From positions 1-42,800 of IMG/VR virus record IMGVR_UViG_2703719347_000006: a stretch of DNA of 42,800 nt; one strand, written 5' to 3'. The notes below the pieces were generated by a model. It did not search any database. It was not told the DNA's origin and saw only the letters and a list, made by a program, of their open reading frames with translations. Both the position numbers and the translations under genes were made by a program. The DNA comes from a virus (taxonomy: Duplodnaviria; Heunggongvirae; Uroviricota; Caudoviricetes). Positions 29,656 to 42,800 of the stretch are shown one piece after another (the first letter of the stretch is position 1; the number at the start of each line of letters is the position of its first letter).

Positions 29656-29843
29656 CGTTTAACAGCCTGCCGGACGGGCTGTCTTACCTTCTCAATCCGG
29701 TTGACGCCGGGTTAATTCCTTATACAGCACTTAAAGATGGCTCTGTCGATTTGTACGACATTGCTCTCTTGAATGACCATCTGGCGGTAAAAGCGGATAA
29801 CCAGCGGCGCATTGAGAAATGGAGAGAGGATAATGAACGCTGA
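29203..29843 (+). CDS. Tail assembly chaperone, predicted -1 frameshift extension product
   Basis: -1 frame is open from the slippery site to TGA at 29841-29843, overlapping the tape measure ATG. Confidence 0.45.
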
Positions 29844-31821
29844 AACTATTAAAGATTTCCTCGTCTCGCTTGGCTTCAGTGTGGATGATGCAGGAGCGAA
29901 AAAGTTCGGTTCTGTCCTCGCCGGTACAACTGCAAATGTCATCAAAATGGGGCTGGCTGTTGAAGGAGCTGCGCTGTCCGTGGTGGCCTTCACGGCTAAG
30001 ATCGCCTCCGGTCTGGATAATCTCTACTGGGCGTCACAGCGCACCGGCGCGACGGTTCAGGGGATTCAGTCTATTGGCTATGCGGTTTCGCAGGTTGGCG
30101 GCAGTGTGGACGCTGCGCGATCTTCTCTGGAAAGCCTCTCCCGGTTTATTCGTAACAATCCCGGAGCAGAAGGCTTTCTGAATCGCCTGGGCGTACAGAC
30201 CCGTGATGCCAGCGGTAACATGCGTGACATGGCTGCTATCTTTACGGGCGTTGGACAGAAACTCAGCAGCATGCCGTATTACCGGGCTAACCAGTATGCG
30301 CAGATGCTGGGCATTGACGAAAATACCCTTATGGCGATGCGCCGGGGTGTGGTTGGTTTCTCCGGGCAGTACAGCGCAATGGCGAAAGCTATCGGTTTCA
30401 ATGCTGACGAGGCGGCCAGAAGCTCCAACAAATTCATGACCTCCCTGCGCGAGTTCGGCGCGATGGCAGGCATGGCCCGTGACAAAATCGGCTCTAATCT
30501 TGCGGGTGGGCTTGCGGGTTCGCTGGACACCCTGCGCCGCCATATCCTGGACAACTTCCCTCGTATCGAGCAGACCCTGACGAAAGCCATAAAAGGCATT
30601 CTGGCGATCGGAGACATCATCGGGCGGCTGTTCTTCAGGCTAATTGAGGGAACATCCAGCCTTATCACCTGGTGGCAATCGCTGGATAAGCAAACGCGGG
30701 AGCTCATCTCGCTGTTTGGTGCACTGACGATTGCGCTGCGCATTCTGAACAGTACGTTCTGGATGTCGCCGATTGGCCTCATTACCGCGCTGGCGGCGGG
30801 TATTGCCCTCCTGTGGGAGGACTATCAGACCTGGAAGGAAGGCGGCGACAGCCTGATTGACTGGGGCAAGTGGAAGCCGGAGGTCGATGCCGCGCTGAAG
30901 ATGGTTCGTGACCTGAAAGGGTCTGTTAATGAACTGGCGAAAGCGCTGGCGAAACTGCTCAATATTGACCCCAAATCATGGTCCCTGAAGTGGGATTTCA
31001 GCAACTTCATCGACCAGATGGGCGAATTCAGCAAAATGCTGAACATGATCGCCGACCTGCTCAACGCTATCAAAGATGGCCGCTGGGCTGATGCCGTCAT
31101 CATCGGCAAACAGATACTTAATCAGGGCAGCGAAAATCCGTCAGCGATGCCGATGGTTACAGACAGCGCTAACAGTGCTGCCGACTGGATTAAAGAGCGC
31201 TGGGGATTCGATCCCCGCAGTGTGGGCCGGACGGTACGCGGCTGGTTTGGTGATGATGAGCCGGAACAATATGCACAGGCTACGAAACGAGGAGAACGGA
31301 ATAACAATCCGGGAAACCTTAATTTTGCTGGTCAGGCAGGGGCTTCTCTTGAACGCCCGGGCGGGCGATTTGCCAGATTTGAAACTGCTTTTGATGGATT
31401 ACGGGCTCTTGCTCGTCAGTTAATGCTGTACGCCGGACGGGGAATAAACAGTGTGGAGAAAATTATCTCTACCTGGGCACCTGCGTCTGATAATAACAAC
31501 ACAACTGCGTATATCAGGGCTGTATCGCAACGACTGGGAGTGGATCCCCGGGCTGCCCTGAATATGAGCGATCCGCAAACCATGTCAGCATTGATGAGCA
31601 GCATTATCCAGCATGAGAATGGAAGAAATATCTATTCTCGAGAGCTGATTAATAAGGCTGCCGTGGCGGGAATCAGTGGCAAAATGACAGAGGTTAACCA
31701 GCAAAATACTTACCACATCTACGGTGGTGGTGACCCGCGTTCTGTCGGTACCGAGGTCGAGCGCCGGCAGCAGTCGGCAAACGCCCAGGTCATGCGCGGT
31801 AATCAAACGAAGGTGGGCTAA
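29833..31821 (+). CDS. Tail tape measure protein
   Basis: 662 aa from ATG 29833 (RBS GGAGAGAGGA); long helical protein with central hydrophobic segments. Confidence 0.75.
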   Translation: MNAETIKDFLVSLGFSVDDAGAKKFGSVLAGTTANVIKMGLAVEGAALSVVAFTAKIASGLDNLYWASQRTGATVQGIQSIGYAVSQVGGSVDAARSSLESLSRFIRNNPGAEGFLNRLGVQTRDASGNMRDMAAIFTGVGQKLSSMPYYRANQYAQMLGIDENTLMAMRRGVVGFSGQYSAMAKAIGFNADEAARSSNKFMTSLREFGAMAGMARDKIGSNLAGGLAGSLDTLRRHILDNFPRIEQTLTKAIKGILAIGDIIGRLFFRLIEGTSSLITWWQSLDKQTRELISLFGALTIALRILNSTFWMSPIGLITALAAGIALLWEDYQTWKEGGDSLIDWGKWKPEVDAALKMVRDLKGSVNELAKALAKLLNIDPKSWSLKWDFSNFIDQMGEFSKMLNMIADLLNAIKDGRWADAVIIGKQILNQGSENPSAMPMVTDSANSAADWIKERWGFDPRSVGRTVRGWFGDDEPEQYAQATKRGERNNNPGNLNFAGQAGASLERPGGRFARFETAFDGLRALARQLMLYAGRGINSVEKIISTWAPASDNNNTTAYIRAVSQRLGVDPRAALNMSDPQTMSALMSSIIQHENGRNIYSRELINKAAVAGISGKMTEVNQQNTYHIYGGGDPRSVGTEVERRQQSANAQVMRGNQTKVG

Positions 31822-32712: not shown

Positions 32713-33777
32713 ATGTCACAGAACTGGATGAGACATTTCGAGCTGCAGCTTGTGGACGGGAACGGTAAGGGAATTGAGCTAAGTGATTTCAAAGTCACCT
32801 TTACGATCGACTGGTTCAACATCAGCAGCGCGTCCCGGGTAGGGACTATCAAAATTTATAACCTTTCGGCAGATACTGTGAACCGAATTACCGGGCAGGA
32901 GTTTTCGAAAGTGCGGCTGATTGCCGGTTACGACGGTATCGCGCCGGAGGTGGCAGCAAGCGACGTCGGGACTGTGCGGGAAGTTGACGCGGCGGACGTG
33001 GGCCAGAGTGATGGCCGCAACTACGGGCTGATTTTCAGCGGAGAAATTCGCTACTCGGTCACAGGAAAAGACAGTCCGGTTGATACCTACGTCCTGATTC
33101 AGGCAGCAGATACTGATCTGGCATTTGCCACCAGTATAACCTCGCAGACGCTGGCGGCCGGTTACACGGTCGCAGATGTGAACCGTGCGCTGATGAAAGA
33201 CTTTGAGGCCAAAGGCGCGACCGAAGGACTGACGCCTGAAATGCCTGCTACCGTATTCCCTCGAGGGCGGGTGCTGTTCGGCATGACACGGCATCTTATG
33301 GATAACGTGGCCGGACAATGTGGCGCAACATGGCAATTTGTGGACGGTCAGCGCCAGATGGTGGCGAATAACGAGTATGTTCACGACGCGATTGTGCTCA
33401 ACAGCGCCACCGGGCTTATCGGCATGCCGCAGCAGACTATCGGCAACGGTGTAAACGTCCGCGCTCTTATTAATCCGAACATCCGGGTTAACGGGCTTAT
33501 TCAGCTGGATCAGGCTTCCGTGTACCGCACCGCGCTGTCGAACAATGATATTGCGATGGCTGGTGGGCAGATCACCGACCAGAACACGGACGGAAATATC
33601 ACGCTCAGCGGCACCACAGCACAACCTGCCAGCATCGCAACGGATGGCGTTTATATTGTGCGCGGGATTATGTACACTGGCGATACAAGGGGCCAGGCGT
33701 GGTACATGGATATGATGTGCGAAGCGCGTGGCGCGGCGGATCTTGTTTCCTCATCAGCGAGGGAAAGAGGGCTTTAA
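32713..33777 (+). CDS. Putative baseplate hub protein
   Basis: 354-aa ORF in baseplate cluster. Confidence 0.4.
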   Translation: MSQNWMRHFELQLVDGNGKGIELSDFKVTFTIDWFNISSASRVGTIKIYNLSADTVNRITGQEFSKVRLIAGYDGIAPEVAASDVGTVREVDAADVGQSDGRNYGLIFSGEIRYSVTGKDSPVDTYVLIQAADTDLAFATSITSQTLAAGYTVADVNRALMKDFEAKGATEGLTPEMPATVFPRGRVLFGMTRHLMDNVAGQCGATWQFVDGQRQMVANNEYVHDAIVLNSATGLIGMPQQTIGNGVNVRALINPNIRVNGLIQLDQASVYRTALSNNDIAMAGGQITDQNTDGNITLSGTTAQPASIATDGVYIVRGIMYTGDTRGQAWYMDMMCEARGAADLVSSSARERGL

Positions 33778-34109
33778 TGAAACGGTTATGTTTGGCGTTA
33801 GTTATGATGGTTACTGCTCCGGCGATGGCTGCAATTCAGTGCGGCAACTACACGATGACCGGTGACGGAATGACTGTTATTAACGGTGAAACTGTCACAT
33901 CACAGAAGATAAAATTTCTGGGAAAAGATGGTGACTATTCAAACATAAAAATGGACATGGGCCTGATGCCTTCCCGTGATGGTAACAATTACGGCTTTGA
34001 GTTTGTGAAACGTAACGGAAAAGCTTTCCTGAATGTCCAACTGCTGCAGAACAGCATGGATGCGCCGAAAATCATCGGTTCCTTTCCATGCAAAAAGATT
34101 GTTGATTAA
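33777..34109 (+). CDS. Secreted (periplasmic) small protein, moron candidate
   Basis: 110 aa from ATG 33777 (TAATG overlap with baseplate gene); signal peptide MKRLCLALVMMVTAPAMA with AMA-A cleavage motif; two Cys in mature part. Confidence 0.45.
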   Translation: MKRLCLALVMMVTAPAMAAIQCGNYTMTGDGMTVINGETVTSQKIKFLGKDGDYSNIKMDMGLMPSRDGNNYGFEFVKRNGKAFLNVQLLQNSMDAPKIIGSFPCKKIVD

Positions 34110-34126
34110 TCACTCGTAATTATAAT
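34099..34126 (+). promoter_or_regulatory. Putative sigma70 promoter for the 79-aa membrane-protein gene
   Basis: -35 TTGTTG (34099-34104), 16-nt spacer, consensus -10 TATAAT (34121-34126). Confidence 0.4.
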
Positions 34127-34162
34127 GTGATACTTCTACTTTCACGATAAGGAATTTGTCGC

Positions 34163-34402
34163 ATGTTCGGATTTGATAAATTAATAACTCCAAAAATCAT
34201 CAACGTTCTGTATGGCATCACAATGTTACTTCTGGTTGTTGCCGCCATTATAACGTTTGTTAATGGGAAGGCTGCTGGCGCTTTAGTGCTTTTGTTATGT
34301 GCTGTATTTTGCCGAATATTCTTTGAGTGCATCATGGTTTCATTTAAAAACAATGAGTATCTTCGCCGAATAGCTGAAGCGTTAGAAGCAAACAAGCAGT
34401 AA
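34163..34402 (+). CDS. Small two-helix inner-membrane protein, candidate superinfection exclusion moron
   Basis: 79-aa ORF with hydrophobic segments IINVLYGITMLLLVVAAIITFV and GALVLLLCAVFCRIFFECIMV; own promoter and terminator; AT-rich. Confidence 0.5.
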   Translation: MFGFDKLITPKIINVLYGITMLLLVVAAIITFVNGKAAGALVLLLCAVFCRIFFECIMVSFKNNEYLRRIAEALEANKQ

Positions 34403-34420
34403 TGAAACTTCAATAATGAA

Positions 34421-34442
34421 CCCGCCACCCGGCGGGTTTTTT
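34421..34442 (+). terminator. Rho-independent terminator
   Basis: Stem cccgcc (34421-34426) / ggcggg (34431-34436), loop accc, then tttttt. Confidence 0.7.
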
Positions 34443-34461
34443 GCTTTCTGGAGCCTACTAA

Positions 34462-35217
34462 ATGGCAGTATCTGACCAGACCCGCAGCGGCGACCTTGCT
34501 GAAACATTCAAATCTGAACGGGAAACAACAAAGAACCAGATCCGAGTCGCCTTGCCTGGCATTATTCAGTCATTCGATCCTGATGCGGTGACGGCGGTTG
34601 TGCAGCCTGCTATCCGTTCGGTTGAAAAGGATAATGACGGCAACCGCATTACCAAAAATTACCCATTGCTGGTGGATGTTCCAGTGATATTCCCACGTGG
34701 CGGAGGATGTACGCTAACGTTTCCGATTAAAGCCGGGGATGAGTGTCTTGTCGTTTTTGCCGATCGTTGTATTGATTTCTGGTGGCAGAGCGGCGGAATA
34801 CAGGAACCGGTTGATGACAGAATGCATGATTTATCGGATGCGTTTTGTATTGTCGGTCCGCAGTCTCAGGCGCAGAAAATCAGCGGAATCAGCACCAGCG
34901 CCGCGCAACTGCGTACTGATGATGGCGCTGCGTTTGTGGAAGTTGCCGCAGGCCATAACATCACGGTTAAAACCCCCGGCGCGCTGACGGCGACAGCAGA
35001 AGGAGGAACCACGATCACATCACCCACCATCACGCTAAACGGCAACGTGACAATAAACGGGAATCTCTCTCAGGGGATGGGCGAAAGCGGCGGCACCGCG
35101 ACGATGCTTGGCCCTGTCACGGTGACTAACGATGTAAAAGCTGGTGGTAAGAGCCTGATGACGCACACGCACGGCGGAGTACAGACCGGCGGCGGTAACA
35201 CAGGAGCGCCTAACTGA
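34462..35217 (+). CDS. Baseplate spike protein (gpV-like)
   Basis: 251-aa ORF; C-terminal Gly-rich repeat region; position before W/J/I-like genes. Confidence 0.5.
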   Translation: MAVSDQTRSGDLAETFKSERETTKNQIRVALPGIIQSFDPDAVTAVVQPAIRSVEKDNDGNRITKNYPLLVDVPVIFPRGGGCTLTFPIKAGDECLVVFADRCIDFWWQSGGIQEPVDDRMHDLSDAFCIVGPQSQAQKISGISTSAAQLRTDDGAAFVEVAAGHNITVKTPGALTATAEGGTTITSPTITLNGNVTINGNLSQGMGESGGTATMLGPVTVTNDVKAGGKSLMTHTHGGVQTGGGNTGAPN

Positions 35218-41373: not shown

Positions 41374-41547
41374 CAATGAAAGAGTGGTGCGCACCGTAAC
41401 TACAACAAGTATGTCCGCAGTTATGGTGCGATACCTTGCGGGTTGAGTAAACGGCCAGTGTTCATTTCTGGATATCTGCTCGCAGATCTTGGCATCTAAG
41501 GAGGTAGCGCAGATGGAACCTGACCCTGGAAGAGTTCGCGTAATGGC

Positions 41548-41820
41548 TTACTGGACTGCACGACCATCGATGTAATCAGCCCACCACTGCATCATCTACC
41601 TGCGCTTATCGAGATACTGAGCATGGTTGTAAATCCCGCGCACAGATCCGCCGTTGGCATGTGCCAGTTGCACTTCAATGGCGTCGGCAGGCCATTCGTG
41701 CTCGTTCATAATCGTGCTGAATTCATGCCTGAATCCGTGACCGCTTTCCAGACCTTCATAGCCGATTTGTTTGATCACAAGCAATACCGCGTTCTCGCAG
41801 ATTGGCTTCTTCTTATCGTT
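41548..41820 (-). pseudogene. Integrase remnant (C-terminal catalytic region only, with in-frame TAG)
   Basis: HGFRHEF...LAHANGGSVRGIYNHAQYLDKRR then TAG (41598-41596), then in-frame MMQWWADYIDGRAVQ to TAA (41550-41548); homology begins abruptly near 41820. Confidence 0.6.
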
Positions 41821-42300
41821 GAGCCAATTAGCGGCGTTTATTTCAGCTGGGACACTGACGGGCTCGGATATGACCAGGGCATCTGGCAAGGGCCATATGA
41901 TCCTGATTCTGGCTATACGACGCTAAGCGATGAGACGTACCGCATCATTCTGAAAGCGAAGATTGCGATTAATAACTGGGACGGGCGGAACGACTCGCTG
42001 CCACCAATTCTGGACGCTGCAACTGCTGGCTCTGGCCTGAAGATGCAGATCGTCGACAACCAGGACATGACGATATCGGTCTGGGTGTTCCCTGAGACTG
42101 ATATTTCTGATGTGTCTCTCGAACTGATCGCCGCTATCAAACAGGGCTATCTCACCGTTAAATCAGCTGGCGTATGGGCCGGTGATGTTGAAACGCCTTC
42201 GGTAGAAACACCGTCAGAAGGCTCTAAATTCTTTGGGTTTGATATGGATAACGAATACATCGGCGGGTTCGATGTTGGAGCATGGGGGACAATACTCTAA
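41623..42300 (+). pseudogene. 5'-truncated paralog of the gpI-like gene, fused to unrelated upstream sequence
   Basis: Residues from about 68 onward (GVYFSWDTDGLGYDQGIWQGPYDP...) parallel 36763-37536; the first ~67 codons are antisense to the integrase remnant. Confidence 0.45.
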
Positions 42301-42800
42301 TGGCAATAAACAACTTTAAACCTTTCGCGCTTGATCCGAACGCTAACGTCACCTCACAAGCTGACTGGGAAGCACTTCCGGCTCTGCTTTCAGGGTTTAC
42401 GGCAGGTAAAGCATCCAGCGCACAGGTCAACAAAGCTATTCGGCAAGCCAGCTTTATCGCGGCAGCGTTGGCGCAGTACACCGCCAACAAAAGCGGGCTG
42501 GATGTGCTTGATGATGGAGACCTGAACGGGTTTATATCCAAAATGGGGACCGCTTTCGGGAAGGATTTCCAGGCCCTTGATGCCACGCTGACGGCATTAG
42601 CTGGGCTGGAAACCGGTGCAAATAAACTCCCGTATTTCACTGGAAATGATACAGCTGCGCAGACTGATTTGACTTCTGTTGGCCGTGACATTATCGGGAA
42701 AAAGACTATTGCTGACATTCTCACATACCTTGGTTTGGGAGAAACGATAAATAAAGCCTCCGGAGCTATGCAGAAATCGGCTAATGGATCTGATATTTCT
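42300..42800 (+). CDS. Tail fibre protein, N-terminal part (runs off the window)
   Basis: Frame open from ATG 42300 to the window end; N-terminus MAINNFKPFALDPNANVTSQADWEALPALLSG. Confidence 0.55.
   Translation, partial: MAINNFKPFALDPNANVTSQADWEALPALLSGFTAGKASSAQVNKAIRQASFIAAALAQYTANKSGLDVLDDGDLNGFISKMGTAFGKDFQALDATLTALAGLETGANKLPYFTGNDTAAQTDLTSVGRDIIGKKTIADILTYLGLGETINKASGAMQKSANGSDIS

Follow-up and report, generated by a model that had tools for sequence, protein, structure and literature searches.

Genes and features at the hub-spike junction

The DNA studied here is a 42,800-nucleotide stretch of a Caudoviricetes virus (IMG/VR record IMGVR_UViG_2703719347_000006, positions 1 to 42,800; referred to below as the window), and the element of interest is a small gene that lies between the baseplate hub gene and the membrane-puncturing spike gene and encodes a 79-aa membrane protein of the DUF4282 family. 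Around this gene, a 1-kb stretch matches a prophage of E. coli EJN001 with 100% identity. Early genes of the lambdoid type (NinB, NinE, RusA, a Q-type antiterminator, and a lambda-family holin) lie in the EJN001 record 5' of a contractile-tail module, in which genes for the tape measure protein (with a lytic transglycosylase domain), a Dit-like baseplate protein, a Pam3_gp18-type plug, and the hub are followed by two small genes and then by genes for the spike, the sheath initiator, baseplate J, and the wedge. We identify the window as an E. coli prophage that combines lambdoid early genes with a contractile tail of the SEN34/Pam3/E217 type.

All features of the junction are on the plus strand. 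The left anchor is the hub gene (32713-33777, 354 aa; PHROG 196 'baseplate hub', E=2e-89, with a weak match to Pfam E217_GP41), while the right anchor is the spike gene (34462-35217, 251 aa), whose product matches the phage spike N-terminal domain (Pfam PF18352, E=2.5e-44) and the GpV Apex motif (E=6e-8). Two open reading frames (ORFs) separate them. ORF-A (33777-34109; phrog_3443, E=4.5e-53) encodes a 110-aa exported protein with a Sec signal peptide, and its ATG overlaps the stop codon of the hub gene (TAATG). ORF-B (34163-34402; phrog_12129, E=8e-48) encodes the 79-aa DUF4282 protein, a predicted inner-membrane helical hairpin. Both had been proposed from the sequence alone in a first-pass annotation, and both are real genes. 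The AT-richness reported at the same time was also borne out: the GC fraction is 0.552 in the hub gene and 0.541 in the spike gene, and falls to 0.43 in ORF-A, 0.375 in ORF-B (18 points below the flanks), and 0.353 in the DUF4282 cassette as a whole, which is ca. 320 bp in size.

ORF-A is constant while the DNA downstream of it varies

The same junction was compared in related phages. With the hub protein as the sole query, 79 IMG/VR loci were collected, and the sample is thus unbiased toward ORF-A. An ORF-A homologue starts 3-33 nt past the hub gene in 76 of the 79 loci. ORF-A, being translationally coupled to the hub gene and present in these relatives, is a lineage-conserved backbone accessory gene and not a moron. 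Between the end of ORF-A and the ATG of the spike gene, on the other hand, the first 79 loci measured have anything between 65 and 1504 nt. An alignment of four variants revealed two shared blocks that flank unrelated DNA. The left block consists of the last ~70 nt of ORF-A (34035-34098 in the window, encoding ..QLLQNSMDAPKIIGSFPCKK) and, judged by nucleotide conservation across cargo variants, marks the left recombination boundary. The right block contains a hairpin, a T-run, and the ribosome-binding region of the spike gene (CTTTCTGGAGCCTACTAAATG, 34446-34464), in which GGAG is invariant in an alignment of 41 junctions.

When all loci were pooled, 160 junctions with 115 distinct hub-to-spike sequences were obtained, and at least 20 types of cargo were distinguished among the latter; four slots were empty. 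The most frequent cargo consisted of two-gene modules containing a HEPN domain (37 of the 115 distinct sequences; Pfam HEPN, E=1e-6), followed by DUF4282 (13 sequences), a YafO toxin pair (11 sequences; NCBIfam, E=2e-7), and PD-lambda-1 (8 sequences; PADLOC, E=1e-84, with MUG113/T5orf172 domains). Smaller groups carry an Mrr_cat nuclease (Pfam, E=3e-27), DUF2335 and other membrane proteins, secreted proteins, or reverse-strand genes. Matches of the cargo to models of Mrr-like nucleases were also obtained. Relatives that exemplify defence, toxin, or uncharacterised cargo are L087:3600-5217, L047, L073, L046, and L004:3011-4001. PD-lambda-1 is the same as SNIPE, a nuclease of the inner membrane that is associated with tape-measure proteins and cuts the DNA of phages while it is being injected (PMC13190303). 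Since the alternative inserts include PD-lambda-1/SNIPE, HEPN modules, the YafO pair, and the Mrr nuclease, the slot between ORF-A and the spike gene is a defence and moron hotspot.

A comparable arrangement is known from P2-like phages and P4 satellites, whose hotspots likewise occupy a fixed position between conserved phage genes, hold many alternative cargoes, known defence systems among them, and swap these when their conserved flanks recombine (Rousset et al. 2022, PMC9122126). The slot described here differs in being located at the hub-spike junction of a SEN34/Pam3-type tail, within the late structural operon and directly upstream of a conserved intrinsic terminator. No description of a hub-spike hotspot was found in a limited literature search. 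The slot is compact and easily scanned, its conserved left and right flanks measuring ~70 nt and ~45 nt, respectively, and the prophage lineage that bears it occurs in several percent of complete E. coli genomes. About a dozen of its inserts are uncharacterised, including a 170-aa protein, transmembrane (TM) proteins, and reverse-strand zinc-ribbon genes. These are ready candidates for new defence or exclusion genes, and we regard the hotspot, together with the uncharacterised inserts to which DUF4282 belongs, as the more useful result of this work.

The DUF4282 cassette as a mobile unit

The DUF4282 cassette was found in 84 of 5426 complete E. coli genomes, always with at least 99% nucleotide identity. 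Near-identical copies of it sit with ORF-A alleles that share as little as 36% identity with that of the window (36-55%) and with spikes that share as little as 68%. In such diverged backgrounds, identity begins within the 3' end of ORF-A (about window position 34035) and ends past the terminator; in the prophages of genomes H27-H29, for example, the match to the window is confined to positions 34035-34453, at ~99%. This pattern indicates that the cassette moves as a unit.

A sigma-70-like promoter candidate precedes ORF-B (34099-34126): TTGTTG (34099-34104) is separated by 16 nt from TATAAT (34121-34126), which ends 36 nt before the ORF-B ATG. In the first-pass annotation, this site was described as near-consensus. 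The -10 element is indeed perfect, but the -35 element matches at only three of six positions, and 29 other plus-strand sites in the window reach the same total of 9/12. The cassette site is the sole one in the window in which TTG is combined with a perfect TATAAT at a spacing of 16-18 nt. In relatives L172 and L173, which carry an 87%-identical homologue of ORF-B, both hexamers and the 16-nt spacing are unchanged while the spacer, the flanks, and the downstream bases have diverged, and this conservation lends modest phylogenetic support to the view that the promoter is real. Independent promoter-like sites are found 30-39 nt upstream of the Klebsiella and Pantoea homologues. The -35 element overlaps the last codons of ORF-A, and the C-terminus of ORF-A changes with the cargo (KKIVD here, KKVSSK beside the 170-aa cargo); the putative promoter would therefore travel with the insert.

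We used the term moron in the sense reportedly given to it by Juhala et al. in 2000. The cassette is extra DNA with respect to syntenic relatives, given that the four empty slots measure just 65-71 nt and most other relatives hold different inserts, and its base composition is distinct from that of both flanking genes. That the 79-aa gene is a moron, and true mobile cargo, is well supported, because it is absent from most relatives, is low in GC, is preceded by a promoter-like site and followed by a terminator, has diverged flanks, and occupies other positions elsewhere.

We conclude that the finding holds up and that the cassette exemplifies morons well, being of an already known kind. The idea that the two small genes form one inserted unit has to be given up: ORF-A belongs to the conserved backbone, and only ORF-B is variable cargo. 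In its initial form, the moron reading treated a gene of the backbone as part of the cargo and assigned to the insert a terminator that is the phage's own.

The terminator upstream of the spike gene

An intrinsic terminator is predicted at 34418-34445. It consists of a hairpin, GAACCCGCC-ACCC-GGCGGGTTT (34418-34439; nine pairs, six of which are G-C), followed by T6, and was called by the terminator scan. Its fold has a z-score of -2.9 and was beaten by 1 of 200 shuffled sequences. In 67 of the 79 loci, among them the four with an empty slot, a perfect-stem hairpin with a T-run is located ~20 nt upstream of the spike ATG. When 41 distinct junction sequences were compared, 93.8% of the cells were paired, and the loops vary freely. 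Double-sided changes are present in four of the eight stem pairs, a number that none of 500 shuffles reached; CCCGC/GCGGG, for example, is replaced by CCTGC/GCAGG, CCCAC/GTGGG, or CCAGC/GCTGG. Because this hairpin is found whichever cargo the slot holds, and also when the slot is empty, the terminator is a conserved element of the backbone and not a part of the insert. It is strong, as first proposed, but is not private to ORF-B. A terminator inside a late tail operon may be an example of how cargo is insulated from structural genes in the lysogen.

Each DUF4282 homologue in other phages also has a hairpin and a T-run 3' of it. In the Klebsiella prophage, the block formed by the hairpin and the ribosome-binding site after the DUF4282 gene (L008:5241-5290, AAACCCGCTCCGGCGGGTTTTTTATGCCCGGAGG) is near-identical to a terminator variant of the myovirus hub-spike slot (L058:4211-4261). 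The terminator scan missed this hairpin because extension of the stem consumes the T-run. The likeness of the two blocks suggests that a DUF4282 gene and a terminator moved together at least once.

The ORF-B protein and the DUF4282 family

ORF-B matches Pfam PF14110 (E=1.2e-10) with 42.2 bits, above the gathering threshold of 27, over profile positions 2-85 of 86, and DUF4282 is also the RefSeq label of the identical protein. Searches of NCBIfam and of PDB profiles gave no meaningful match. The protein contains two hydrophobic helices (TM1, about residues 12-33; TM2, about residues 39-60), and the AlphaFold2 model is a helical hairpin (helices 10-33 and 37-78) with a mean predicted local distance difference test score (pLDDT) of 85. 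There are two lysine or arginine residues at the N-terminus, one in the 5-residue loop, and four at the C-terminus; based on this distribution, both termini are predicted to be cytoplasmic (N-in/C-in).

Homologues form 87 clusters with 45-99% identity, are nearly all 77-82 aa long, and, where the source is named, come from Enterobacterales. The invariant residues (F4, I8, T9, P10, R51, E55, and the FKNNEYL-RI motif) fall into three parts of the protein, the N-terminal stretch, TM2, and the juxtamembrane C-terminal helix, which reads FKNNEYLRRI in this phage and is predicted to be cytoplasmic. The ratio of nonsynonymous to synonymous substitutions (dN/dS) was 0.1-0.26 in the five pairs of homologues that gave values, dS being saturated in most pairs. 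These values indicate that DUF4282 genes are under purifying selection and, taken with the constant length of the homologues and the invariant cytoplasmic motif, that ORF-B encodes a real protein. A 102-aa ORF on the minus strand (34120-34428) is the mirror image of ORF-B, and hence invariably co-occurs with it; this co-occurrence provides no independent support, and the antisense ORF was rejected as mechanical.

DUF4282 genes occupy several different genomic positions. The hub-spike slot holds them in Erwinia, in Pectobacterium, and in metagenomic relatives. Three other phages have them directly 3' of the tape-measure gene: a siphovirus-type prophage of Klebsiella, a Salmonella prophage whose tail is E217-like (9-nt gap), and Edwardsiella phage GF-2 (TAAATG overlap). 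Comparison of the three tape-measure proteins revealed no C-terminal similarity common to them, and thus the three placements are independent of one another. In Pantoea prophages, the gene is located 3' of a lysis cassette with the order holin-lysozyme-Rz, from which it is separated by two other small genes, and it has a called promoter and its own terminator. A Franconibacter homologue occupies a non-phage chromosomal site. In GF-2 (L180:5408-7316), the DUF4282 homologue is followed by an island that contains genes for two Arc-like regulators and an Ant antirepressor and that sits between the tape-measure and baseplate genes, i.e., at another cargo site of a tail module.

Proposed role of ORF-B

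On balance, we favour the view that ORF-B is a slot cargo with its own promoter that encodes a prophage-borne protective factor, which most likely would hinder DNA entry. In the lysogen, the cassette promoter would transcribe ORF-B, and the backbone terminator would keep the transcript out of the spike and baseplate genes. In the lytic phase, late transcripts might read through the terminator by virtue of the Q-type antiterminator that is annotated upstream in the EJN001 prophage. The 79-aa product would form an N-in/C-in helical hairpin in the inner membrane, expose its conserved surfaces to the cytoplasm, and protect the cell by interfering with the DNA entry of incoming phages, by analogy with HK97 gp15.

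HK97 gp15 is a small inner-membrane superinfection-exclusion moron product that is related to YebO and whose gene adjoins the tape-measure gene (PMC3594210). The likeness extends to several features: both are small inner-membrane proteins encoded by tail-operon inserts beside the entry-apparatus genes; each insert has a promoter of its own (predicted in the case of ORF-B), is followed by a terminator, and has a GC content unlike that of the flanks; and the homologues of both are limited to Enterobacterales, some being chromosomal. The two differ in that no sequence relationship between them was found in the Pfam scan of ORF-B, the host phage here is a myovirus and not a siphovirus, and the terminator here belongs to the backbone. 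PD-lambda-1/SNIPE offers another parallel, since it occupies the same slot, has an inner-membrane anchor, and acts at genome injection together with tape-measure proteins; ORF-B, however, has no enzymatic domain and no homology to it.

The functional class we propose for ORF-B is that of T4 Imm and P22 SieA. T4 Imm is a phage-encoded inner-membrane protein that blocks DNA entry and leaves the receptor unmasked. The same is true of P22 SieA (PMC10883804). Both belong to other families without detectable similarity to ORF-B, and differ from it in genome position and in the timing of expression.

Superinfection exclusion at DNA entry is our best guess, and is plausible from context because the slot elsewhere holds validated defence genes. 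The DNA-entry step is favoured because of the repeated siting of DUF4282 genes beside tape-measure, hub, and spike genes and because of the gp15 precedent. A confirmed phenotype would give Pfam DUF4282 its first function.

Several observations weigh against this proposal. A consensus promoter scan of the window did not call the TTGTTG-16-TATAAT site, with its weak -35 element. At E<=0.1, no PADLOC family matched ORF-B, and a Pfam scan returned DUF4282 and YbhQ only, neither being a characterised family; a limited literature search for DUF4282 found no paper. The conserved residues are predicted to face the cytoplasm and the periplasmic loop to comprise just ~5 residues, so that contact with an incoming tail tip would need to take place within or below the membrane. 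In GF-2 and Salmonella, 0-9 nt separate the homologue from the tape-measure gene, and in these phages DUF4282 is probably expressed late, with the tape measure, and not in the lysogen. The Franconibacter homologue, finally, has no phage context.

A bolder version of the proposal would make DUF4282 proteins an unrecognised family of inner-membrane blockers of DNA entry linked to the tape measure or the tail tip, the SEN34/Pam3-type hub-spike junction an undescribed 'landing pad' for defence genes, and ORF-A a factor that acts on the envelope. We consider this combination possible but doubtful. If true, the pad would lie upstream of a conserved intra-operon terminator and beside ORF-A, whose product might, for example, mask the receptor or entry.

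Many small membrane proteins modulate host transporters, sensor kinases, or stress responses, and ORF-B may instead be a factor of lysogenic conversion or host physiology, that is, a small inner-membrane regulator of one of these targets. The non-phage context of the Franconibacter homologue would agree with such a role, as would the cytoplasmic or juxtamembrane location of the conserved surface and a weak, sub-threshold similarity to YbhQ, a family of host inner-membrane proteins (E=8e-4); non-defence fitness genes are also frequent among morons (PMC3594210). The identifiable alternative cargo of the slot, however, is related to defence or toxins, and a role in host physiology leaves unexplained the repeated siting of DUF4282 genes by tape-measure, hub, and spike genes in four tail lineages. 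We therefore consider this explanation unlikely.

Class II holins generally have two TM helices, an N-in/C-in topology, and a highly charged C-terminus. ORF-B, with 79 aa, two TM helices, a predicted N-in/C-in topology, and a highly charged C-terminus, has the same layout, and might be a holin-like, antiholin-like, or membrane-depolarising protein that affects the timing of lysis or serves as an abortive-infection effector. The Pantoea homologue is encoded just 3' of the lysis cassette, and the GF-2 and Salmonella homologues are apparently co-transcribed late. The EJN001 prophage, however, is already equipped with a holin of the lambda family, an endolysin, and an Rz-like gene, and Pantoea has a separate holin, with the two small genes intervening before DUF4282. 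In addition, ORF-B does not match any holin family of Pfam or PHROG, its gene is in the tail module, and a constitutively expressed holin would be toxic to the lysogen. A holin-like function is thus quite improbable.

That ORF-A and ORF-B together form a two-component envelope system, made up of a periplasmic and a membrane protein, is largely excluded by their distribution: the genes are adjacent, on the same strand, lower in GC than their flanks, and both products are targeted to the envelope, but ~90% of relatives have ORF-A without ORF-B, phages of Klebsiella, Salmonella, Edwardsiella, and Pantoea have ORF-B without ORF-A, and the ORF-A alleles that accompany ORF-B include at least three very different ones.

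The exported protein encoded after the hub gene

The ORF-A signal peptide is of the classic Sec type (MKRLCLALVMMVTAPAMA, with the mature part starting at A). In an alignment of 26 homologues with 58-88% identity, a signal peptide is present in all members, though variable in sequence, while the mature part is strongly conserved, with C22 and C105 invariant. The AlphaFold2 model (pLDDT 77) contains the signal helix and seven strands, the mature part being all-beta. ORF-A was not matched by any Pfam or NCBIfam model, and structural and sequence searches gave no relatives. An exhaustive hidden Markov model search of 1.84 billion representatives returned just 63 clusters at 50% identity, and no named family was linked to them.

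ORF-A is conserved with the tail module, as would be expected of a virion structural or tail-assembly protein, but it does not have the features of a cytoplasmic protein. The cleavable-type Sec signal peptide and the two invariant cysteines in every aligned homologue imply that the protein is exported away from the site of tail assembly. ORF-A may be an accessory factor of the periplasm that is expressed late and has the envelope as its site of action. In the three hub-anchored loci without an ORF-A homologue, the gene is replaced by one for a 241-aa lipoprotein (lipobox LTSC) in one case and by one for a signal-peptide protein of ~175 aa in the other two; L157:3948-4673 and L163:4487-5098 are among these loci. 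Since all three replacements are lipoproteins or signal-peptide proteins, the position after the hub gene always encodes an exported protein in this sample.

Two cargo clusters of the hub-spike slot, C34 and C159 (L054:3875-4258 and L091), comprise secreted proteins of 124-127 aa that align to ORF-A with an hhalign probability of 79% (E=1.6e-5). They look like distant paralogues of ORF-A, and some phages would then carry two ORF-A-like exported proteins in tandem. In Pseudomonas phage E217, the gene between hub gp41 and tip gp43 is gp42 (L181:9595-10128), which is unmentioned among the published virion-structure proteins. The gp42 protein was considered as an equivalent of ORF-A and rejected as a homologue, being 177 aa long, without a signal peptide, and unrelated.

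Other features of the prophage

In the identical EJN001 record, the tape measure protein of the window (29812-31821, 669 aa) carries the annotation lytic transglycosylase, and the Pfam SLT domain is present in its homologue from Erwinia. A possible role for ORF-A as a periplasmic partner or as an inhibitor was considered in this connection. At window positions ~41400-42800 (L002:27801-29823), 3' of the tail-fibre genes, an integrase pseudogene fragment is annotated in the EJN001 record. It is followed by a second, partial set of DUF2612, gp53-like, and tail-fibre-assembly genes, which adjoins intS and a tRNA-Arg gene. The second set suggests either a remnant of a second, related prophage or a swap of the tail-fibre module.

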